Below are positions 410-31,805 of a stretch of DNA of 32,000 nt, piece after piece. Made by a program: the position numbers and the translations under genes. Origin of the DNA: an uncultured archaeon. Its GTDB lineage: Archaea; Asgardarchaeota; Thorarchaeia; Thorarchaeales; Thorarchaeaceae. The notes under the pieces are model-generated. The model was not told the origin of the DNA and made no database searches. It saw only the letters and a list, made by a program, of their open reading frames with translations. Positions within the stretch are counted from its first letter, which is position 1, and each line of letters begins with the position of its first letter. Location: positions 49,532 through 81,531 of the forward strand of contig CAZYLT010000004.1 of the NCBI GenBank assembly GCA_964648855.1, read 5' to 3'.

Positions 410-703
410 TTACAAGTACACTTCTGATTCAACTTTGAAAATTTTGATTTTCAATATGTCACGGTAATACAGGAACAGCTCGTCGAACTGATCTTTGCAA
501 CCATCGGGAACCAAAATCGCAGAGTCTGTAACCGACTCAGCTCCCATACACTCCTCAATAAGTCCGACCTTTCTCTTCGTCTTGGTGCCCGACTTAGTCT
601 TCCATGAATAGGTGAATCCGTAGAGCTCTTTTGTGAAAGACACTCTCCTGGCGTTACTCTCCCTAGCCGCAACACAATCATAGATGTACAAGAACGCCAA
701 CAA
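410..703 (-). CDS. Small hypothetical protein, predicted Cas2/VapD-like ferredoxin fold
   Basis: TTG start with GGTGA RBS just upstream. N-terminal strand FLYIYD, helix NARRVSFTKELYG, then SAILVP and KIKIFKV strands. Confidence 0.6.
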   Translation of the reverse strand: MLAFLYIYDCVAARESNARRVSFTKELYGFTYSWKTKSGTKTKRKVGLIEECMGAESVTDSAILVPDGCKDQFDELFLYYRDILKIKIFKVESEVYL

Positions 704-2151: not shown

Positions 2152-3465
2152 ATGAAGACTGTTCTATGTCTAGGAGCGGGTCTCGTCGCCCGACCCTATG
2201 TTCAATATCTATGTAAAAGAGGATTTCATGTTATCGTTGCTAGCCGAACAAAGGAAAAGGCCGAGAAATTGATCCAAGGCTGCAAGAGCGCAGAAGCTGT
2301 GCAATTCAACATCAAAGATGATGATGAGCTCCTTCAAGAACTAGTAAACAAATCTGACCTGGTATGCTCCCTTCTTCCATATACTTACCACGTTAAGGCA
2401 GCAGAAGTAGCAATTGAGAATAACAAGCACTTCTGTACCACTTCTTACATTTCAAACGAGATGCACGAGCTGGACAAACCTGCAAATGAATCCAATGTTA
2501 TTCTTCTCAATGAGTGTGGTGTAGATCCTGGAATTGACCACATGAGTGCGCAAAAAATCATTGATGAAATTCATGATCAGGGTGGCAAGATAATCAGTTT
2601 CACTTCTTTCACTGGCGGCTTGCCTGCTCCAGAAGCAAATGATAATCCATTTGGTTACAAGCTATCATGGAGTCCTCGCGGTGTCCTGCTTGCAGGACGA
2701 AATGATGCTCAATTCTTGCAGGATGGCGAAGAGGTAACCATTCCCGGTTCAGAGTTGTTCAACAATTGCAACATTATGGAAATCCCCGGAATGGGTGAAT
2801 TCGAAGGATATCCCAATCGAGATAGCCTCTCTTACATTGATATCTATGATATCAATGAGGTCCAAACAATGTTGAGGGGCACATTGAGATATCCTGGCTG
2901 GTGTGATACCATCCAAGCAATTGCTGATTTGGGTCTTCTAGACCTGACGGAACGAAAGCTATCTGGTATAACATACAAAGAGATGATTCAACAAATCGTA
3001 TCCGAAGACAGCAATCCAAGAGAAGCCGTTGCCAAGGAGCTGAGCTTAGAATCTTCTGATCCGATTATCGAACGACTCGATTGGCTAGGATTATTTTCCG
3101 AAGATACAATGCCTGATGACAGGAATACATACCTTGATGCTCTATGTAATCTGTTCGAAGAGAAACTGCAGTATGCTACTGGCGAACGAGATATGATTGT
3201 GATGCATCATGAATTCGTTGCCAAATACCCAGAAAAGAGAGAGAAGGTAACATCGACCTTGATTGATTATGGTATCCCCAACGATGACACCTCTATGTCT
3301 AGAACTGTGGCATTACCTGTCGCTATTGCATCTAGACTAATTCTACAAGACAAAATTGACGCTAGGGGAGTACATCGGCCTATTCTTCCTGAGATCTATG
3401 AGCCTATTTTGTCTGAGCTAAAGGAACTCGGGATAGAGCTCAAAGAGAGAACAACAAAACTGTAG
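2152..3465 (+). CDS. Saccharopine dehydrogenase (glutamate-forming), Lys9 / AASS C-terminal-like
   Basis: Rossmann LGAGLV, SLLPYTYH, TTSY, NECGVDPGIDHM, GGLPAPE..DNPFGYK.SWSP.GVL, RGTLRYPG, M.RTVALP. Confidence 0.95.
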   Translation: MKTVLCLGAGLVARPYVQYLCKRGFHVIVASRTKEKAEKLIQGCKSAEAVQFNIKDDDELLQELVNKSDLVCSLLPYTYHVKAAEVAIENNKHFCTTSYISNEMHELDKPANESNVILLNECGVDPGIDHMSAQKIIDEIHDQGGKIISFTSFTGGLPAPEANDNPFGYKLSWSPRGVLLAGRNDAQFLQDGEEVTIPGSELFNNCNIMEIPGMGEFEGYPNRDSLSYIDIYDINEVQTMLRGTLRYPGWCDTIQAIADLGLLDLTERKLSGITYKEMIQQIVSEDSNPREAVAKELSLESSDPIIERLDWLGLFSEDTMPDDRNTYLDALCNLFEEKLQYATGERDMIVMHHEFVAKYPEKREKVTSTLIDYGIPNDDTSMSRTVALPVAIASRLILQDKIDARGVHRPILPEIYEPILSELKELGIELKERTTKL

Positions 3466-3505
3466 TAGATAGAACTTCAAGCTGAGCAGAGGACTGAAGC
3501 TGAAT

Positions 3506-4132
3506 CTATTTGCCGACTTGCAAGTGAATCAGTGAAAGAATCTCTTCAGACCTTTCCACTTCCTTCTGTGTTTCTTTTAATTCAGTCTTTAGTCGGTATG
3601 TATAGCCCGAGCGATTTCCATACCTCTCTACATGCCCCTCTCCCTCATCCCACATTCTTGCAAGATAAGTAGACGCAGTGCTCTTTGGAAGCGACTCATT
3701 GAAGGTACTCTCATAGATTTCAGCTACATCAAGAGAAGAGAATTTGCCATGTTTGAATGATGCGTATATTACAACCTGCATCTTCTCGTAATTACTCATG
3801 GCTTCAAAGTCCAATTCAGGCGAACCTGTCGATGGTGCCTCCATTTTGGTTTCAGGAAAGCTATATCCTGTGCTAGTTTCAAGAAATACCCTGAACTTCT
3901 GGATCATCTCATCAATGTCGCCCTTAACTTGAAAGCTGGATTCTTCTCCCGTGGTTTCTGAAGATATTACTATCTTGAAATCAAAAGGAGATTCTGTGAG
4001 TGATACTATCTTTTTGAAACGTTTTAGAGCCTCATCCGGGGAAACGTATTTGCACCGGAAGATTTCCTTCATTCCTGGTCCGGAGCTATAGGTGAACTCG
4101 TAGATGTAATTTGTCCGAATTTCTTCACTCAC
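3506..4132 (-). CDS. Winged-helix DNA-binding protein with duplicated N-terminal beta-beta-alpha modules
   Basis: GTG start with GGTGA RBS. C-terminal FSSLDVAEIYE..F...LPKSTASTYLARM.......VER.G....YTYRL is a typical wHTH. Confidence 0.75.
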   Translation of the reverse strand: MSEEIRTNYIYEFTYSSGPGMKEIFRCKYVSPDEALKRFKKIVSLTESPFDFKIVISSETTGEESSFQVKGDIDEMIQKFRVFLETSTGYSFPETKMEAPSTGSPELDFEAMSNYEKMQVVIYASFKHGKFSSLDVAEIYESTFNESLPKSTASTYLARMWDEGEGHVERYGNRSGYTYRLKTELKETQKEVERSEEILSLIHLQVGK

Positions 4133-4643
4133 TTTGATTCACCATAATCAGTACTGAAACCCAAGGGTACCGTACACCTGATTCACATGTGGTAACGTTG
4201 CAATCCAAATAAGTGTGAGTATGTGAATCGACTATACACACATAACGTCAAGATATTACCCAACATAGCTTGATTAGCTTCTAAACCTTCAATTAGAGTA
4301 TTCTAAGACATTATAGTAACCATTTCAATATAAAAAACCCTCATAACTCTTATTTTACACCTTTAGGTGATTTCTCCAACTTAACTACTATTCACATGCT
4401 TATCATGCTTGTGAACATGCTATAGTATTATTCATATCTCTAATTACTCATCTCCAGTGGAAACGAAGGGGTGTCTTTATTCACATGTATGAACGGGGTT
4501 ATGAGGGCTTTTCTAATGAAAATAAGACAAATGACATTCTTTTGCAGTAATTCATTCACAAAAATGGCGCCATTCACAGATAATGGTTGTGAAAATGTGT
4601 TAATGAGGTGAATAATTGAAAGGAAGACTAGTGAAAGAGGATT
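4133..4643. other. Putative origin-like region B: ORB, AT-rich DNA, TTCACA repeats and a long imperfect inverted repeat
   Basis: ORB 4453-4472; ATTCACA or its inverse at 4181, 4222, 4390, 4479, 4554, 4572; inverted repeat about 4323-4349 / 4496-4521. Confidence 0.65.
4453..4472 (+). promoter_or_regulatory. ORB identical (inverted) to 162-181
   Basis: TCCAGTGGAAACGAAGGGGT, a 20/20 match to the reverse complement of 162-181. Confidence 0.85.
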
Positions 4644-23938: not shown

Positions 23939-24039
23939 GCGGCCGTGGTCTAGTTTGGTTAGGACGGAAGCTTCCCAAGCTTCCAACCCGAGTCAATTCA
24001 TCACAAATTGCGGGACTTCAAATCCCGGCGGCCGCACCA
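23939..24039 (+). tRNA. tRNA-Gly(CCC) with a 24-nt intron at 53/54 (intron 23993-24016), encoded CCA
   Basis: Acceptor GCGGCCG/CGGCCGC, anticodon arm GAAGC-TTCCCAA-GCTTC. Splice motif CCCG AG|T CAATT..AATTG CGGG AC|T. Confidence 0.93.
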
Positions 24040-24160: not shown

Positions 24161-24258
24161 ACCAATACTTTCACCCACCTCTACCACTAATGTTCAATTA
24201 ACCGAACAAACAAGCAAGCCTTTTTATGTTAATGCACATCACAATCTCGTGGTTTCTG

Positions 24259-25452
24259 ATGCCGCGTGACTATGTTGAAGACGAACTCGGGAAGACTAGC
24301 GTATTCAAATCCGAGAAATATCTGTCAATAGATTATGTACCCGAGAATCTACCTCATAGAGAAACAGAATTGAGAACACTGGCTCAAAGTTTCAAAACAA
24401 TGATTGTTTCTCCTGGACAAACAAGTCAGAAATTCATCATCCAAGGGCCCGTTGGGACAGGAAAGACTGCAGTCACAAAGAGATTTTCTGAGCAATTAGT
24501 TCAAGCTGCAGCAAGGAGAAAAATAAGACTACGTAAAATACACATCAATTGTAGAGTCAATAAGAGTGAGTATCTTGTATATCTTAAAATTCTTCGGTCA
24601 TTCAAACCCAATTTTCCCCGTCGAGGGCATTCTCCTGAAGAAGTTCTTCAAATGATTATAGAAGTACTTGATGCTGAGGATCGATATCTTTTACTGATTC
24701 TGGACGAACTTGATTACTTCATTAAGCAAAAGGGCGTAGACATAATATACAATCTGACTCGCTTAATGGATGATCGATTAAATGCACCCCAACGACTCTC
24801 GATTATTGGTATCGGTCGAAAAATTCCCTTAGACGATAGTGTTTTTGATTCCAGTACATTGAGTACATTGCAACGCAATGTGCTATATTTTGAGAAATAC
24901 ACCTCACGCGCACTGAGGGATATTCTCTCTGAGAGAATCAAGATGGCTTTTGAACCTAGAGCAATTATGGAGGAAACGATTAATGTTATTTGTGACATTG
25001 CCTCAAACAGGGGGGATGCACGGTATGCTATCGAGCTCCTTTGGCGCGGTGGGAAACAAGCTGACGCAGTCGGTTCTGATGTCATAATCCCCGATTATGT
25101 TCGAAAGGCTAAAGCTGACACTCACCCAGAACTACGAGAAGAGGTTTTCGAAACACTTCCTTTACATAATAAATTGTTACTATTGGCTGCCGCACGCCAG
25201 TTGAAAGAGGCAAGAAGTGCATATGTGACGATTGGGGAGGTTGAGGAGATGTATCAATCAGTTTGCGAAGAGTTTGGAAAACAATCTAGAGCACATACAC
25301 AGATTTGGGAATGGGTTCAAGACTTGACTGCTCATGGCGTAATAGACGCCAGGAAATCAGGAGTAGGTCAAAGGGGTCAGACAACTCTTATCGGGTTATC
25401 AGACGTTCCTGCGGATTTACTTGAACAATTCTTGGTCAGTCTTTTGGAGTAG
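24259..25452 (+). CDS. cdc6: Orc1/Cdc6 replication initiator family protein; likely start ATG at 24259
   Basis: VF....L..DYVP..LPHRE, GPVGTGKT, HINC, LILDELD, GDARYAIELL, C-terminal wHTH with G.RGQTT.I. Confidence 0.96.
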   Translation: MPRDYVEDELGKTSVFKSEKYLSIDYVPENLPHRETELRTLAQSFKTMIVSPGQTSQKFIIQGPVGTGKTAVTKRFSEQLVQAAARRKIRLRKIHINCRVNKSEYLVYLKILRSFKPNFPRRGHSPEEVLQMIIEVLDAEDRYLLLILDELDYFIKQKGVDIIYNLTRLMDDRLNAPQRLSIIGIGRKIPLDDSVFDSSTLSTLQRNVLYFEKYTSRALRDILSERIKMAFEPRAIMEETINVICDIASNRGDARYAIELLWRGGKQADAVGSDVIIPDYVRKAKADTHPELREEVFETLPLHNKLLLLAAARQLKEARSAYVTIGEVEEMYQSVCEEFGKQSRAHTQIWEWVQDLTAHGVIDARKSGVGQRGQTTLIGLSDVPADLLEQFLVSLLE

Positions 25453-25461
25453 AAGCAAAAA

Positions 25462-25755
25462 ATGCCACTCGATAAGAAAGAAAAGAACCCGCCAATTCCA
25501 ATTGAAGAGCTTTTCTCCTCAAAGGGCAGGATGAAAATATTGAAGGAGCTTGCCCTGTCCAATGAGCTAAATATATCAGAATTATGCCGACGGGTGAGCC
25601 TAAATCATAGCACAACAAAGGGGCATCTGGAGGCTTTGATGGAAGCAGGACTCGTTGAAGAAAAAATTTTTGGCCGAATCAAAATCTATCGCTTCAAATC
25701 AGAGGATCTGAGAGCTCGTTCATTTCGGAACTTTTTGGATCTATGGCAATCTTAA
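25462..25755 (+). CDS. ArsR-like winged-helix transcriptional regulator
   Basis: LFSSKGRMKILK.L....ELNISEL.RR..LNH.....HL..L...GLVEEK.FGRIKIY. Confidence 0.85.
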   Translation: MPLDKKEKNPPIPIEELFSSKGRMKILKELALSNELNISELCRRVSLNHSTTKGHLEALMEAGLVEEKIFGRIKIYRFKSEDLRARSFRNFLDLWQS

Positions 25756-25767
25756 GGAGGCTGTTCC

Positions 25768-26592
25768 ATGCCCAAATATGCTTGCAAGCTCTTCTATTTA
25801 GGAACTGCCTACCATGGTTCACAATACCAACCAAATCTACCTACAATTCAAGGGGAGCTGATAAATGCTCTAACTAAATGGAGTGGTCGCGAGTACTCTT
25901 CAACATCGGTAGCATTCGCAGGACGCACAGACAAAGGAGTTCATAGCATTGGTCAACTGGTTTCTTTCGAAACCGAAGATAAAATACAAATCAATCAAAT
26001 CAATAAACACTTGCCAGAAGATATTATCCTATGGGCTGAAACTGTAGTTCCTATGGATTTCAATCCTAGACATAGGGTTCTATTTCGGCACTACCGATAT
26101 TATTTTGATGAAAGCCAAAGCCAAGTTGACTTCTCAAGAATCATGCATGCCGCTAATCAGTTGGAGGGGCTTCATGACTTTCAGCTCCTGTCAAAACCAG
26201 ATGACAATAGGTCTACTAACACCATTCTTCTGAATGTATGTATATCAGATGAAAAGACATTCTTTGCAGATTTTTATGGTCTTAGTTTTCTATGGAAACT
26301 TGTACGAAAGAGTGTCACTCTGCTTGTCAATATTGGAAAAGGGAAGGCTGACCCAGATATATTTAGACGACTACTTGACGGAAATAATGTTCTCCCAAGC
26401 GGAATTGAACCCGCCCCTCCCGAAAACCTGTTTCTTATGGATGCTGCCATTCCACTTCAAATGAAGGCGAACAAAAATGTAATCAATATCATTAGAAAAA
26501 GATTGAAGAAATGGATTTCACATTTTCGACGTTATCAGATAACACTTGAAGGAGTATTTACTGACTGTTTCAACGAAGAATTCCTTTGCTGA
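25768..26592 (+). CDS. truA: tRNA pseudouridine(38-40) synthase
   Basis: Y.G..Y.G.QYQP...TIQ, AGRTDKGVHS.GQ, R.YRY, G.HDF, FLWKLVRK. Confidence 0.95.
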   Translation: MPKYACKLFYLGTAYHGSQYQPNLPTIQGELINALTKWSGREYSSTSVAFAGRTDKGVHSIGQLVSFETEDKIQINQINKHLPEDIILWAETVVPMDFNPRHRVLFRHYRYYFDESQSQVDFSRIMHAANQLEGLHDFQLLSKPDDNRSTNTILLNVCISDEKTFFADFYGLSFLWKLVRKSVTLLVNIGKGKADPDIFRRLLDGNNVLPSGIEPAPPENLFLMDAAIPLQMKANKNVINIIRKRLKKWISHFRRYQITLEGVFTDCFNEEFLC

Positions 26593-27769
26593 CTTTCAGC
26601 CACTCACTGTATTGACTTTTCAAGTCCGGCTTGTTCTTTAGAATTTCTTCCAGAGCCCATAGATGCGTTTCTTGTACTCGTTCTTCAGAGGTATTTGTAA
26701 TTGCAGCTACTCTTGATGCCAATTCAGCCCTCTCAGACTGTCGTCTGTTCCCTCCCCATACCAGCAATGGCCATTCTGGTCTAGCGTAATCGACCAACGA
26801 AAAGGGAGTTTGTTTCCGGCTGTTTGATACGCCTGCTGAAAGAAAATCGTAGACATAAGCCAGCAACTTCCAATTCTGATCTCGCATAATTCTCCCCAGA
26901 TAAAGGTCAGCAAGTGATAAAGCCTCAAAACCATCCTCCAGCTCGCTAGCGGTTTTCAAGTGGAGCTGTATGTTTTCTTCAATCCAAAGGAGTAAGTCAT
27001 CATAAGAAACGTCACTCTGAGAAACTACACTTCTTGCTGCTTGTGGGTCCGTTGCCATGAATAATCTCTGTAGAGTTTCTTCCACATTTCTTCTTGTAGT
27101 ACGGTTTCCTAAAGCTGATCTCGCCTCAATGTCATCGTAGGTCGTTTCCAGATCGGCTATCGCCGCACGAAGGTCTCCCGCAGATTTTGCAACAATTATA
27201 TCCAACAAGTCTTCAGAGGTAGAGGCCGAATGTTGATCGGATATACCCTTCAATACGGTCATCATCTCATCATCGTTTATTGGATGAAACATCAGCACCA
27301 ATGACTTCTTCTTTAAATTCTTTAAACGACGATTATCGGGGTCATTAGCTGTCATTACAATAGGGTGGACAGCTTGGTCTAGTATTTTCATGATTGCTCG
27401 AACTCCGCCCCTATCGCTAGTTCCAGATAATCCATCTACCTCATCAAGAAGAATAATGCGCATCCTCCCGTCTAGTGTCTGCTGAGTGGCAGCCCTCCAC
27501 ACAAGTGTGTTAATTGCGCCCTTGTTCCTTTTATCACTAGCATTGAATTCCACTAATTCCACATTCATGTCACGTGATATAGCTCCAATCGTTGCCGTCT
27601 TGCCGGTTCCTGGAGGGCCAATCAAAAGTGCAGCCTTGTTGTGAGGCACAGAAACTCTCCATTTTTCTAGCCATCGCATCAGCTTTTCTATTGATTCTAT
27701 ATTACCTACAAGCTGGCTTCTGCTGGTCGGCCTATGCAATTCTGGCCATGGCAAGTTGCTTTCCTTCAT
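26570..27769 (-). CDS. rfcL: Replication factor C large subunit
   Basis: W.E.HRP, GPPGTGKT, E.NASD.R, LLDEVDG, TAND, GDLRAAI.DL. Confidence 0.95.
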   Translation of the reverse strand: MKESNLPWPELHRPTSRSQLVGNIESIEKLMRWLEKWRVSVPHNKAALLIGPPGTGKTATIGAISRDMNVELVEFNASDKRNKGAINTLVWRAATQQTLDGRMRIILLDEVDGLSGTSDRGGVRAIMKILDQAVHPIVMTANDPDNRRLKNLKKKSLVLMFHPINDDEMMTVLKGISDQHSASTSEDLLDIIVAKSAGDLRAAIADLETTYDDIEARSALGNRTTRRNVEETLQRLFMATDPQAARSVVSQSDVSYDDLLLWIEENIQLHLKTASELEDGFEALSLADLYLGRIMRDQNWKLLAYVYDFLSAGVSNSRKQTPFSLVDYARPEWPLLVWGGNRRQSERAELASRVAAITNTSEERVQETHLWALEEILKNKPDLKSQYSEWLKVSKGILR

Positions 27770-27775
27770 TATTCA

Positions 27776-28720
27776 TTATCCACCAAATGTAGAGAGAAGT
27801 GCAGAGATTTGTATCTCACCATTAGCCCCCTCTGCAATCCGGAACTCGGTATCTGCGGTATGCTCTAGTATCTTCATTTTGAGATTATTCTCCAAATCGA
27901 GTTTGAAAATCTCCCTGTGTATCTGTTTGATCAAGTCCAATGGCGAGACTCCCTCGTGATAAATCAATTCTCTGAGATTCATAATTGCGGCATTATAGTT
28001 TCCCTCTGTTGCAGAACCTAACATTTGACCGATACTTTTTGGATCTGCTCTTCCCGAAATCGCAAATACAATATCCGCGGTTACCAATTCTCCAGTAGAA
28101 GACGCAGCCTGCAATATGTTAATAGCGGCCCTCATATCCCCGTTTGCTAGGTACAAAATTGCATTTTCACCCTCCTCATCCATAGATACATTCTCTTTCT
28201 CCGCAATGTAACGTAGCCTATCGGCTATATCATCATCGGAGAGTCGTGAGAATTTGAATACTGCACATCTTGATTGAATGGGCGGAATTATCCTACTTGC
28301 GTAATTGCAAATCAAAATCATACGACAAGAGGTGGCATACGATTCCATGGTCCGTCTTAATGCATGCTGCGCATCACTCGTGAGATGATCTGCTTCATCC
28401 AGTACAAGAATCTTGAATGGTGCATTTCCTGCTGGCAAGGAGCGCGCAAAATTCTTGATTTGATTTCTGACTACATTAATCCCCCTTTCGTCACTGGCAT
28501 TAAGTTCCATGAAATTTCGATTAAATGAATCTCCAAACAAATCCCTTGCTAGAGCCATAGCCGCCGTAGTCTTTGCTGTCCCAGGTGGACCTGCAAAGAG
28601 ACAATGCGGCACAGCCTCTCTCTCCACAAATTTTTCCAATCGGTTCACAACGGAATCTTGTCCGACAATATCGCCTAACGTAGCGGGTCGGTGTTTTTCT
28701 GTCCATAAGTCTATTTCCAT
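27776..28720 (-). CDS. rfcS: Replication factor C small subunit
   Basis: WTEKHRP, GPPGTAKT, ELNASDERG, LDEAD.LT.DAQ.ALRR, IQSRC. Confidence 0.97.
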   Translation of the reverse strand: MEIDLWTEKHRPATLGDIVGQDSVVNRLEKFVEREAVPHCLFAGPPGTAKTTAAMALARDLFGDSFNRNFMELNASDERGINVVRNQIKNFARSLPAGNAPFKILVLDEADHLTSDAQHALRRTMESYATSCRMILICNYASRIIPPIQSRCAVFKFSRLSDDDIADRLRYIAEKENVSMDEEGENAILYLANGDMRAAINILQAASSTGELVTADIVFAISGRADPKSIGQMLGSATEGNYNAAIMNLRELIYHEGVSPLDLIKQIHREIFKLDLENNLKMKILEHTADTEFRIAEGANGEIQISALLSTFGG

Positions 28721-28903
28721 TCACAAATCCCATCCAGTTGGATATTTCATCTCGGTTCATCTTCACGTACATGGAGGCCTTAAAAGCTTCTTCGAATATA
28801 TGAAAAGAACTATCCAATATGAGTTCCACTCACATGTATCTAGTAATCCAACAAGGAGTTTATGAAGTACACTGCTGGACTATCAAATATCTGGTGAAGG
28901 GTC

Positions 28904-29464
28904 ATGATAGAGATTAGAGAACACACCTCCGATATCGTAAGACGTTCAGACATGGCTTTTCTAAATTCTTATCGGCAGTGTATCGTCAAACAAGATATGT
29001 CTGAAATCACCGTTGGTGGCAAAAAGTTTGGGCCTTTTAAGGCAGGCTCCAAGGTTCATCTTCCGAATTGGGTTATTGAAAATTTGGTTGATAGAGATAT
29101 TGCTGAGATATCACAAGAGGATGATTACGATTCTCTACGCCATCTCCAAAACATCTATCGACTAGAAGAGGACCATCCACATCGGATTCAAGAATTCCAT
29201 CCTCTTCTCTATTCCGCCCTAAGAAGAAATCTCCTCAAACTCCAACAAGATAGAACCTCCATCGACCCAAGAATCCGTGAAGAAATTAAAAAGATGCAAC
29301 GAATGATTCCTTTGATTGTGGAAACTCGCCTTTCAAAAATACTCCGGGTTGCGAAATCAGGAGCTTATCAGGATAAGAGAAAAGGCATGACTTTGGAAGA
29401 GAGGTGGCTATGTGAAGAGATGATCACTCTGCTCTCCTCCTGGCGTGCAGAAATAACAGAATAG
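28904..29464 (+). CDS. GINS complex subunit, Gins23-type
   Basis: N-terminal beta domain (GPFKAG..V.LP.W....L) followed by a helical domain with RL.KI and MT.EE; directly upstream of mcm. Confidence 0.85.
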   Translation: MIEIREHTSDIVRRSDMAFLNSYRQCIVKQDMSEITVGGKKFGPFKAGSKVHLPNWVIENLVDRDIAEISQEDDYDSLRHLQNIYRLEEDHPHRIQEFHPLLYSALRRNLLKLQQDRTSIDPRIREEIKKMQRMIPLIVETRLSKILRVAKSGAYQDKRKGMTLEERWLCEEMITLLSSWRAEITE

Positions 29465-29732
29465 TAGATCTCTAAAGACTAAAGGCACAATTTACCAATT
29501 ACTTTTCCTGACAATAAGGGACTAAAGTCCGCAAATAGAAGAGGTATCTTCAGACAATGGAGGGGCGTCTTCTTTACATACGTAAAATGAATTTGGATGC
29601 CGTTTATTTAGCTAGAAATGGGAAAGTATGAATACAGTAGCTTAAATACAACTCCAAGAAATCATTAAGTAGAACTCGGGGCAGATACTCAACCGATTTC
29701 GAGTTGCATTCAATATCTGAGGCAGGCATTTG

Positions 29733-31805
29733 ATGTCAGAATACGAAATAGGACCACAGGAAAGATTTGAGGAGTTTCTTAAATCCTATAAAGATGAACA
29801 AGGAAACGCCTTGTATTGGACTAGAATACAACAGATGTCCATTAATGAGGAAACCTCAATTAATGTTGATTTTCAGGACCTAGCTAGTTTCGACAATGTC
29901 TTCTTAGCTCTTTCCAAAGAGGATCCAATTACTTTTCTGAAAATGGCTGATGACGCATTGCGTTCTCTTCTCAGAACGGATGACCCTGATTATTTGGCTG
30001 GAATTGACGAGGGCTTAATAAGAATCAGAATTGTCAACTATCCCGAACACGTTTCATTACGTTCCATTCGCTCTCGACATATAGGAAAACTCATACACAT
30101 CAGTGGTATTATGATGCGAGCCAGTGAGGTCAAGCCTCTACTGGTTCATGCAACCTTTCGCTGTAGGAGATGCGGTGAGGAAGTTTCATTATCCCAAGAA
30201 GATGGAAGATACATAGAACCTGATCAATGTCCTGTCTGTGGGAAAAAGACTCCAGTAAGATTGGTTCCAGAAAAGTCACAATTCCGTGACTGGCAGAAAG
30301 TACGAATACAAGAGTCTCCCGAAGAATTGCCCCCTGGTCAAATGCCACGGTCCGTTGATGTTATCCTAGAAGGAGACATTGTTGATATTTCTCGACCTGG
30401 TGACCTTGTCAAAATTACTGGTATTCTCATGACCGCCCCTGACTTCTCAAGGAGAAGAGGCAGATTGGCGACGTTTAGCGTTTTCATTGAAGCTAATGGG
30501 GTTGAAATAGCAGAAAAAGAATATGAGCAATTGGAATTATCCGAACATGACGAAAAGCAAATTCAGGAACTTGCAGAAGATCCTTACGTACACGAACGAA
30601 TTGTTGCATCTATTGCACCCTCCATCAAGGGTCATGATGATATAAAGGAGTCAATTGCTTTGCTCCTCTTTGGGGGAGTAGCAAAAACACTTCCAGACGG
30701 CACACGATTGAGAGGCAAATCCAATATTCTAATGATTGGAGACCCAGGCACCGGAAAGAGCCAGATATTGAAGTTTGTTTCAAAATTGGCATCTAGAAGT
30801 CTTTACACATCCGGTAAGGGTACGACAGCGGCAGGATTGACTGCAGCAGTTGTTCATGATACAGATAGCGGCGCTATGACATTGGAGGCCGGAGCATTGG
30901 TTCTTGCCGACCAAGGAATCGCATGTATCGATGAATTTGACAAGATGGATCCAAACGATCGAACAGCCATTCATGAAGCAATGGAGCAGCATACCGTGAG
31001 CATTGCAAAAGCAGGTATTGTGGCAACATTAAATGCAAGAACATCCATCCTTGCCGCTGCAAACCCCAGTCTGGGTCGATATGAACCATCTGCATCAGTT
31101 CAGGATAACATAAAGCTGCCATTCACTATTCTTTCTCGATTCGACTTGATGTGGATACTTGTTGATACAGTTGAGGCAACAAAGGATCGTGAACTCGCTC
31201 AATTCATATTAGGGATGCATAGAATGAAGCGGAGCGAAACGGACACCAAGACTCCTCCAATACCACCAAGTTTCTTGAAGAAATACATTGGATACGCTCA
31301 TAGGTATGTGCTCCCGCAGCTTACAGTAGAAGCTGCTGAAGTCATAGAGAATTTCTATGTAGACCTTAGAAAGACGGCCGAAGGGGGTGCAGCTCCCGTT
31401 CCTATTACGGCTCGCCAGTTGGAGGCACTTGTTCGTCTTTCAGAGGCAAGAGCTCGAATGGCGTTGAGGTCTAAGGTAAGCAAAGAGGATGCCCAAGCCT
31501 CCGTGAGACTCATGGAAGAATCCCTGAAAATGGTTGCACTTGACCGTATCACAGGAAAAATCGATATAGACCGAATGGTATCTAAGATGAGTGCAGCACA
31601 AAGGAGTTCATCCGATACTATATTGAAGGTAATGAGAGATATGGAGTCGGAGGGCATATCTACTATCAGTGAAGAGGAATTAATCCGACGCGTAGAGCCT
31701 ATGGGTCTCTCAAAGGAAAGGGCAGAAGAAGTAATCAGGAAACTTGTCGCAGAGGGGATCTTGTTTAGTCCCAAACATGGTAAGTTAAAACGGGCCCAAA
31801 GTTAA
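29733..31805 (+). CDS. mcm: MCM replicative helicase (no intein)
   Basis: C4 zinc finger, QESPE..P.GQ.PR, GDPGTGKS, IDEFDKM, HEAMEQ, LSRFD, ITARQLE, C-terminal wHTH. Confidence 0.98.
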   Translation: MSEYEIGPQERFEEFLKSYKDEQGNALYWTRIQQMSINEETSINVDFQDLASFDNVFLALSKEDPITFLKMADDALRSLLRTDDPDYLAGIDEGLIRIRIVNYPEHVSLRSIRSRHIGKLIHISGIMMRASEVKPLLVHATFRCRRCGEEVSLSQEDGRYIEPDQCPVCGKKTPVRLVPEKSQFRDWQKVRIQESPEELPPGQMPRSVDVILEGDIVDISRPGDLVKITGILMTAPDFSRRRGRLATFSVFIEANGVEIAEKEYEQLELSEHDEKQIQELAEDPYVHERIVASIAPSIKGHDDIKESIALLLFGGVAKTLPDGTRLRGKSNILMIGDPGTGKSQILKFVSKLASRSLYTSGKGTTAAGLTAAVVHDTDSGAMTLEAGALVLADQGIACIDEFDKMDPNDRTAIHEAMEQHTVSIAKAGIVATLNARTSILAAANPSLGRYEPSASVQDNIKLPFTILSRFDLMWILVDTVEATKDRELAQFILGMHRMKRSETDTKTPPIPPSFLKKYIGYAHRYVLPQLTVEAAEVIENFYVDLRKTAEGGAAPVPITARQLEALVRLSEARARMALRSKVSKEDAQASVRLMEESLKMVALDRITGKIDIDRMVSKMSAAQRSSSDTILKVMRDMESEGISTISEEELIRRVEPMGLSKERAEEVIRKLVAEGILFSPKHGKLKRAQS

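Follow-up and report, generated by a model that had tools for sequence, protein, structure and literature searches.

Control of archaeal replication origins beyond Orc1/Cdc6 is largely unknown, and the literature gave us one characterised accessory factor, UBP of Sulfolobus, from 2025. Here we describe a candidate origin-encoded factor with precise sites, conserved from Bathyarchaeia-type contigs to Asgard archaea. It is a 208-amino-acid (208-aa) protein encoded at 3506-4132 of a 32,000-nucleotide stretch of DNA from the family Thorarchaeaceae (the window; C4:49532-81531 of genome G000, a 3.1-Mb assembly that is 94.6% complete). Its putative sites are TTCACA-type boxes, some of them interleaved with an origin recognition box (ORB), in the gene-free gap of 511 bp upstream of the gene (4133-4643). 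Sequence comparison leads us to think it probable that this gap is an origin-side control module, in which the protein would bind the boxes, regulate its own gene and form a fixed complex with Orc1 beside the unwinding core.

One functional parallel is UBP. The available part of its description presents a non-initiator, sequence-specific binder whose ucm motif lies within or beside Orc1-type origins, which require it for their activity (PMC12141716). The protein is a beta-rich saddle of 111 aa with 329 genomic peaks, and one ucm lies inside the unwinding element (PMC12141716). A preprint gives the motif as TTATACAAAC (bioRxiv 10.64898/2026.08.15.744077). Our locus would share this type of origin logic, a short motif paired with a DNA-binding protein other than the initiator, if the protein binds the boxes as we suppose. 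It differs from UBP in that the protein here has a putative winged helix and an origin-linked gene, whereas the available text does not place the UBP gene beside the origin (PMC12141716). It also differs from the ucm picture in having one array of about nine TTCACA-type boxes outside the unwinding core.

Additional cis elements have been described at other Orc1-type origins. In the Thermococcales (Pyrococcus), dp1 carries a second conserved ORB cluster bound by Orc1/Cdc6, about 1.5 kb from oriC, and the accessible part of the paper proposes that it belongs to a higher-order origin complex (PMC1904270). The gap at 4133-4643 is comparable to it in position. In Haloarcula hispanica extra cis elements modulate Orc1-type origins, and an ORB-rich region apart from oriC2 acts negatively, probably by titrating Cdc6, according to the accessible sections of that study (PMC3936714). 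The logic is comparable to what we propose, but those sections describe no dedicated second DNA-binding protein (PMC3936714).

WhiP of Sulfolobus oriC3 is an initiator described as having two winged-helix domains, and its origin has an inverted repeat (IR)/ucm/IR arrangement and no ORBs (10.64898/2026.08.15.744077). The likeness is that a winged-helix protein is encoded beside an origin-type sequence presumed to be its target. The differences are that alignment gives our protein one winged helix, although the WhiP sequence was not compared directly, and that its array contains an ORB and no unwinding element.

By domain, the nearest matches are the BlaI/MecI/CopY repressors (PF03965), and the recognition helix and wing align with those of MecI. 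Repressors of this group dimerise on short inverted repeats and control their own expression. The Penicillinase_R architecture, with an N-terminal winged helix, a C-terminal dimerisation domain and, as partner, a sensor protease or a metal site, is not what we find here: the winged helix is at the C-terminal end, which inverts the order of domains, no BlaR1/MecR1-type sensor gene adjoins the 3506-4132 gene, and the context is a replication origin. We found neither the protein family nor TTCACA boxes at origins of archaea described in the literature outside subscription journals and supplementary files. The pair is directly testable, one protein and a 7-bp box, together with a defined composite site next to Orc1. 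It would be of use for the study of replication control and origin architecture in lineages without a dissected origin, and as a marker of origin loci for annotators of fragmented Asgard and Bathyarchaeia assemblies.

The box array and its conservation

The gap lies upstream of the open reading frame (ORF) for the 208-aa protein, which is on the reverse strand with a GTG start, and is bounded on the far side by the stop of a convergent 334-aa gene. The whole of it (4133-4643) is a candidate docking and control region, with a GC content of 0.335 at 4200-4599 against about 0.42 nearby. We aligned it across 20 genomes from 16 genera of the source family, and the conservation counts in this section refer to that alignment.

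Exact ATTCACA heptamers lie on the forward strand at 4181, 4390, 4479, 4554 and 4572 and on the reverse strand at 4222-4228, and TGTGAA occurs at 4222, 4410 and 4588. A preliminary description of this DNA had listed eight ATTCACA and TGTGAA positions, all of which proved correct on recount, and the head-to-head pairs it saw are real (4181/4222, 4390/4410 and 4572/4588). It had missed three boxes: TGTGAGT at 4214-4220, GGTGAAT at 4607-4613 and a TCCA half-site at 4375-4378.

The part of the gap nearest the gene looks like an autoregulated archaeal promoter, judged by the placing of its elements. B1 (ATTCACA, 4181-4187, forward strand; hexamer exact in 20/20 genomes) reads TGTGAAT on the gene strand and occupies positions 49-55 nt ahead of the start codon, where transcription is expected to begin. 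The candidate TATA box, to which we assign a promoter role by position, is AAATAAG at 4207-4213 on the reverse strand (CTTATTT on the gene strand), and its ATAA (4209-4212) is kept in at least 18 of the 20 genomes. Directly upstream of it, B2' (TGTGAGT, 4214-4220) and B2 (TGTGAAT, 4222-4228) form a reverse-strand tandem pair 8 nt apart, each exact in 18/20, within a 15-nt block (4214-4228) kept in at least 18/20. The gene-strand order is ATTCACA-T-ACTCACA-C-TTATTT, about 25 bp, TGTGAAT and a variable leader of about 48 nt. Just upstream of B2, at 4236-4270, the alignment also has weakly conserved A/T-rich triplets (ATA, TAA, ATA, TA) with a period of about 10 bp, which could reflect DNA bending or further weak half-sites.

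The distal part comprises TCCA, the B3/B4 pair, an ORB with B5, and a dyad of four boxes around GGCGCC. The forward-strand TCCA (4375-4378) equals the first arm of the ORB dyad (TCTCCA, as at 4451-4456) and occupies invariant or nearly invariant columns. B3 (ATTCACA, forward) and B4 (TGTGAAC, reverse) form a convergent pair at 4390-4416 whose start-to-start distance is 19 in 20/20 genomes. The TTCAC core of B3 is present in all 20 and its full hexamer in 11, and B4 is present in all 20. The preliminary description had placed a box 6 bp after the ORB, and this is borne out by B5 (ATTCACA, 4479-4485, forward; exact in 19/20), which starts 6 nt past the G-string of the ORB at 4453-4472; the ORB-B5 distance of 27 is fixed in 20/20. 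The dyad (4554-4613) runs B6 (4554-4560, forward; exact in 19/20), an invariant GGCGCC (4566-4571) that abuts B7 (4572-4578, forward; 17/20), B8 (4588-4594, reverse; 18/20) and the weaker B9 (GGTGAAT, 4607-4613, reverse; GTGAAT exact in 11/20, by eye from the alignment). Its B6-GGCGCC, GGCGCC-B7 and B7-B8 spacings of 11, 7 and 15 hold in every genome.

The array is plainly conserved across the family. From B1 to B8 gaps appear in only 9 of 416 alignment columns, with 71 invariant columns and an average identity of 64% per column. The box hexamers are exact in 17-20 of the 20 genomes, B3 (11/20) excepted, and B9 is weaker. The B2-B3 distance is 169 bp in 19/20 genomes, while the spacer between them ranges from AT-rich to GC-rich and its sequence is not conserved. 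Such keeping of length without sequence is expected of a fixed protein-DNA architecture. The model of boxes and ORB by itself explains neither the constant length of this spacer (4229-4389) nor the invariant GGCGCC. The encoded protein is 64-73% identical across the family loci, and the flanking saccharopine dehydrogenase C-domain gene 65-72%.

Two other readings of the conserved gap were rejected. A structured RNA does not fit, since RNAalifold pairs only the invariant boxes, with a covariation term of -0.15 and compensatory change in 1 of 30 pairs; Rfam gave no match to the gap at the gathering score (best E-value 0.29). Nor does the 169-bp spacer hold a conserved small ORF, no frame being open in all 20 genomes.

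Within the genome the array stands alone. The window contains 17 ATTCACA heptamers, against 8.4 +/- 2.7 in shuffled sequence, where none of 100 shuffles reached 17, and six of them fall in the gap, within about 400 bp. Genome-wide there are 569 copies, or about 0.18 per kb. With six heptamers or eight hexamers per 450 bp the gap is the top cluster of the genome, the runner-up having three or four, and it holds 5 of the genome's 42 hexamer pairs spaced 6-45 bp apart. The second-best heptamer cluster (C4:7420) sits in apparent coding sequence. Elsewhere, a perfect 25-bp palindrome, CTTTCACAATTAACTATTGTGAAAG, at C5:82655-82680 (L181) has the half-site and spacing of B7/B8 and lies a short gap before two tandem peroxiredoxin-like genes; its frequency is at chance expectation and it may be a chance match.

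A probable winged-helix family at Orc1-type origin loci

The 208-aa protein has 304 homologues at 65-97% identity, those with names coming from Thorarchaeota (Asgard group). Of 24 further genomes of the source family, 21 have a single copy, and 50 of 59 are matched by a profile. An exhaustive search gave 63 cluster representatives at E<=1e-3, mostly of 130-165 aa and aligned to residues ~50-190, so the broader family would consist of one small N-terminal module and a C-terminal domain. Residues ~49-97 are the small alpha/beta module common to the relatives of about 150 aa, and are followed by a linker and the C-terminal winged helix. Residues 1-48 are an N-terminal module added in the source family only. 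The preliminary description had seen two similar beta-beta-alpha modules here; the register it proposed does align, but with an hhalign probability of 1.9% and an E-value of 0.026 the duplication is unproven.

The C-terminal domain is likely a winged helix of the MecI/BlaI kind. Its recognition helix is KSTASTYLARMW, its wing GNRSGYTYRL, and the pattern of the domain across the family xSTxSTYLxRL...G.L.R.G.R....YRL. Weak profile matches point the same way: Pfam Penicillinase_R (BlaI/MecI/CopY, PF03965) matches 13 of 30 relatives at E<=0.01, with a best E of 1.7e-6, and the relative P0127 scores 22.8 bits against a gathering cut-off of 22.6. The best PDB match is MecI (1okr, residues 36-81; E 0.02), with recognition helix and wing aligned. 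The winged helix of the preliminary description is in this way upheld through the relatives, but not by any Pfam match to the protein itself. As a lead only, the ESM Atlas returned archaeal clusters alone, one of them with 18% Penicillinase_R. No homologue was found among 72,556 plasmid or 50,697 phage records.

The gap contains a full ORB at 4453-4472 (forward strand; exact pattern match), with the dyad TCCAGTGGAAAC and the G-string GGGGT. It is identical over 20 nt to the ORB at 162-181, and with two mismatches allowed the pattern has three copies in the 3.1-Mb genome, all in the window, against none for the reversed control. It therefore has the dyad with G-string, the rarity and the clustering at an origin that mark archaeal ORBs, and its blocks TCCA, TGGAAAC and AGGGGTG are kept in at least 18/20 family genomes. 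A composite of ORB, six nucleotides and box was present in 10 of the 11 loci scanned within the family, and also in L034, the closest outgroup, which belongs to the same order.

The gap itself, with a single ORB, lacks the layout of an oriC core, in which inverted ORBs flank an AT-rich tract. That layout is found about 4 kb away, at 162-326. The likely unwinding core (121-354) consists of the palindrome AGAACACGTGTTC (124-139), ORB(-) (162-181), an AT-rich tract, ORB(+) (307-326) and a second palindrome (338-353). In other lineages the box/ORB gap and the core are about 1 kb apart within one locus.

Linkage of the family to such loci recurs across many Asgard families. Ten family loci of 20 kb keep one order: a 97-aa ORF, two saccharopine-pathway genes, the winged-helix gene and the ORB-bearing gap. 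In all six loci of five other Asgard families a homologue of 150-175 aa lies beside ORBs and directly beside cdc6, and five of the six also have the 97-aa ORF, which adjoins the winged-helix gene in other Asgard lineages. L034 runs cdc6 (reverse strand), gap, winged-helix gene, 97-aa gene and palindrome-ORB-AT-ORB-palindrome, and its gap between cdc6 and the winged-helix gene carries one ORB and six ATTCACA. This looks like the ancestral layout. On that comparison, metabolic genes have in the source family been inserted between the winged-helix and 97-aa genes, and the Orc1-1-type cdc6 has come to lie 60 kb off. Among 20 further Asgard loci, 13 have an ORB core within 1.1 kb, 9 have cdc6 within 1.5 kb, and 15 have it somewhere in the 11-16 kb fetched. 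When upstream words were ranked in 26 loci from outside the family, a TTCACA-type heptamer was among the top words in 11 and GTTAACA in 4. Across the phylum, 179 of 251 genomes have a profile match at E<=1e-5, and the weakest of these matches may be other winged-helix proteins. The preliminary description had made its proposed origin-binding factor depend on homologues with origin linkage and upstream repeats, and the homologues have both.

The same arrangement extends beyond the Asgard archaea. A profile search named Bathyarchaeia members of the family, and in two Bathyarchaeia genome contigs cdc6 and the homologue diverge around a gap with ORB-like sites; in one locus (L090) 7 of the 14 TTCACA copies in 12 kb fall in this gap. 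A metagenome scan with an alignment of Bathyarchaeia-type members gave 80 loci at 38-100% identity. In the 62 with at least 600 bp upstream, boxes occur at 6.91 per kb upstream and 0.57 per kb elsewhere, with four or more boxes in 56 and an ORB-like site in 54. Where 2.5 kb or more of upstream sequence is available (38 loci), cdc6 diverges from the homologue within 1.2 kb in 34 cases; the 97-aa gene is missing from all 80. Box positions, in the TGTGAA orientation, concentrate at about -60 to -20, -160 to -140 and -340 to -300, and B1 in the window has this orientation too, at -55 to -49. By this evidence the 3506-4132 gene is a member of an uncharacterised archaeal family residing in the Orc1-type origin locus of Asgard genomes and Bathyarchaeia-type contigs.

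The proposed role of the gap and its alternatives

The arrangement suggests how the module might work. The winged-helix protein would bind the ATTCACA boxes sequence-specifically, probably as dimers on the convergent pairs. Binding at the proximal boxes would give autoregulation, B2/B2' abutting the TATA-like element and B1 lying at the expected transcription start. The distal boxes, interleaved with the ORB and GGCGCC, would, with Orc1-1 on the ORB, form a nucleoprotein complex of fixed geometry. Such a complex would be a satellite control module of the origin with its core at 160-330 rather than a second origin; possible actions are holding or titrating Orc1 and looping to the core.

The strongest alternative, which we nevertheless regard as unlikely, is that the protein is an autoregulated transcription factor and nothing more. 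The boxes and ORB would then serve as operators for the promoter of the protein's gene and, ancestrally, for that of the divergent cdc6, with Orc1 as co-repressor and no action on replication. Several features would suit this: B1 and B2/B2' bracket the TATA-like element, the Bathyarchaeia-type clade also conserves proximal boxes, at about -60 to -20, and the gap is the shared promoter region of cdc6 and the winged-helix gene in most lineages. The Orc1-1-type cdc6 of the source genome, moreover, retains mini-ORB cores at its own promoter. However, cdc6 has left the neighbourhood, and yet a further seven conserved boxes, together with the ORB and GGCGCC, keep an invariant spacing 200-480 bp upstream. 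The genome has no other box cluster, so the factor's only visible multi-box target is the origin locus, and the lone other palindrome of the same spacing, that before the peroxiredoxin genes, is no more frequent than chance. Self-regulation alone does not account for a distal part so large, so distant and so rigid. It is these properties, with its persistence in the absence of an adjacent cdc6 and its standing as the only multi-box site in the genome, that lead us to see a satellite control module in 4133-4643.

To which protein the boxes belong can be judged from three natural rearrangements. In the source genome the Orc1-1-type cdc6 is 60 kb off with its mini-ORB cores and has no TTCACA in the 0.8 kb upstream, and the boxes remain by the winged-helix gene. 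In the source family the 97-aa gene has been split off by 2.7 kb of metabolic genes and has kept the palindromes and ORB pair, but not the TTCACA boxes. Finally, genome G036 keeps cdc6 and three ORBs without the winged-helix gene and has one TTCACA in 4.2 kb, whereas the congeneric G056 carries the gene, preceded by 8 boxes within 750 bp. Gene and boxes are in this way inherited together, and the case for linking the array to the winged-helix gene is strong.

This bears on a second alternative, which we consider improbable, that the boxes are bound by some other factor (a second Orc1/Cdc6 paralogue, the 97-aa origin protein or a global regulator) and merely adjoin the gene. Binding by the winged-helix protein is something we infer, and the boxes do co-occur with ORBs: six distant loci, L077-L080, L086 and L087, lack both an ORB (within 1.1 kb) and any hint of boxes. 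Yet the boxes stay with the winged-helix gene when cdc6 or the 97-aa gene is separated from it, and they are present in 56 of 62 Bathyarchaeia-type loci, none of which has the 97-aa gene. They are absent in G036, where the gene is lost and ORBs and cdc6 remain. There is no ATTCACA heptamer between 21999 and 28719 of the window, hence none just upstream of the cdc6 at 24226. In the three GTTAACA genomes the recognition helix reads LSVVSTYL in place of LSTxSTYL (Val for Thr).

Two observations belong beside these rearrangements. The Orc1-1-type cdc6 (C4:112810-114072, in the region C4:112810-114150) has three CCAGTGGA-type mini-ORB cores within about 80 bp before its start, without a G-string. 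In the G036 locus (L092; G036:C1:637725-641930) about 1 kb of GC-rich DNA, at ~2850-3800, lies between cdc6 and the ORBs, at the site that the winged-helix gene holds in relatives. This stretch contains neither a clean ORF nor anything that Rfam matches, and could be a structured RNA of unknown kind or an insertion.

It seems very improbable that the array is a centromere-like partition site with the protein as a SegB- or ParB-like adaptor, an analogy raised in the preliminary description. A unique multi-copy array near an origin, presumably bound by the protein encoded next door, would fit, but no ParA/SegA-type ATPase gene lies beside the winged-helix gene in the window, where the Pfam scan covered part of the neighbours, and none was seen among the adjoining ORFs of at least 80 aa in six distant loci mapped. 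The partner gene in most lineages is cdc6. The comparison with iterons fails as well. Iterons of Rep replicons are direct repeats of 17-22 bp, whereas these boxes are 7 bp long, stand in both orientations rather than as long direct repeats, and have no plasmid or phage homologue of the protein to go with them.

That the gap is an independent second origin with a WhiP-like initiator, as its ORB, repeats, adjacent winged-helix gene and lower GC might suggest, is hardly credible, since it holds a single ORB, its spacer is AT-rich in the source genome and GC-rich in relatives (e.g. L004, L005), so that no unwinding element is conserved, the canonical ORB(-)/AT/ORB(+) core is 4 kb away at 160-330 and in other lineages forms one locus with the gap, about 1 kb from it, and neither the 208-aa protein nor the relatives scanned match a Cdt1-type Pfam family.

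When weighing the origin-side control module, it is important to remember several points that count against it. What the comparison shows directly is that the array is conserved, is unique in the genome, is linked to origin loci and is inherited together with the gene. Box binding, the promoter assignment and any effect on replication are deduced from sequence, as is the firing of the locus as an origin, and GC skew on the 236-kb contig is dominated by gene orientation and uninformative for origin placement. A look for expression data turned up no RNA: the four sequencing runs listed are all DNA, from a single microbial-mat study, and three of them may be where this DNA came from. The protein itself has no match in Pfam (E<=0.01), NCBIfam or PDB. 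Seven of the 20 further Asgard loci have no ORB nearby and 11 of the 26 loci from outside the family no box enrichment, in both cases mostly those of the weakest homologues, and the profile does not find the family in 72 of the 251 genomes of the phylum at E<=1e-5. The composite of ORB and box occurs in only 4 Bathyarchaeia-type loci, by a regular expression that misses variant ORBs. The loci compared are kin rather than independent samples, so counts over them overstate independence, and the covariation of recognition helix and box rests on one lineage, which is one event.

A bolder extension, which we hold doubtful, is that the main origin of Asgard and Bathyarchaeia archaea is set by two components, Orc1 on ORBs and a winged-helix co-factor on TTCACA boxes, whose complex of fixed geometry would license or silence initiation. 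Asgard archaea are the closest known relatives of eukaryotes. Were the extension true, the lineage nearest to eukaryotes would have an archaeal equivalent of CtrA and similar cell-cycle regulators of origins.

Neighbouring features

The genes flanking the 3506-4132 ORF are saccharopine dehydrogenase genes and a nucleotidyltransferase-like gene. The 97-aa ORF (410-703, reverse strand) has no match in Pfam, NCBIfam or PDB, and moves with the ORB pair and the GAACAyrTGTTC palindromes. Of the three copies of the palindrome AGAACAyrTGTTC(T), those at 124-139 and 338-353 bracket the ORB(-)/AT/ORB(+) core, and the one at 718-735 precedes the start of the 97-aa ORF by about 15 bp. The palindrome also follows ORBs beside homologues of this ORF in L026, L030, L034, L037 and L071. 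Palindrome and ORF look like a second protein/site pair of the origin.

Further along the window, 24226-31805 is an island of replication genes, with a Cdc6 paralogue, an ArsR-like winged-helix gene, TruA, the large and small subunits of RFC, a GINS-like gene and MCM. The Cdc6 paralogue (24226-25452) is about 30% identical to the origin-type Cdc6. Rfam identifies a tRNA (41.5 bits) over 98 nt at 23939-24036 that ARAGORN did not call; it may contain an intron, and it lies just upstream of the cdc6 paralogue.

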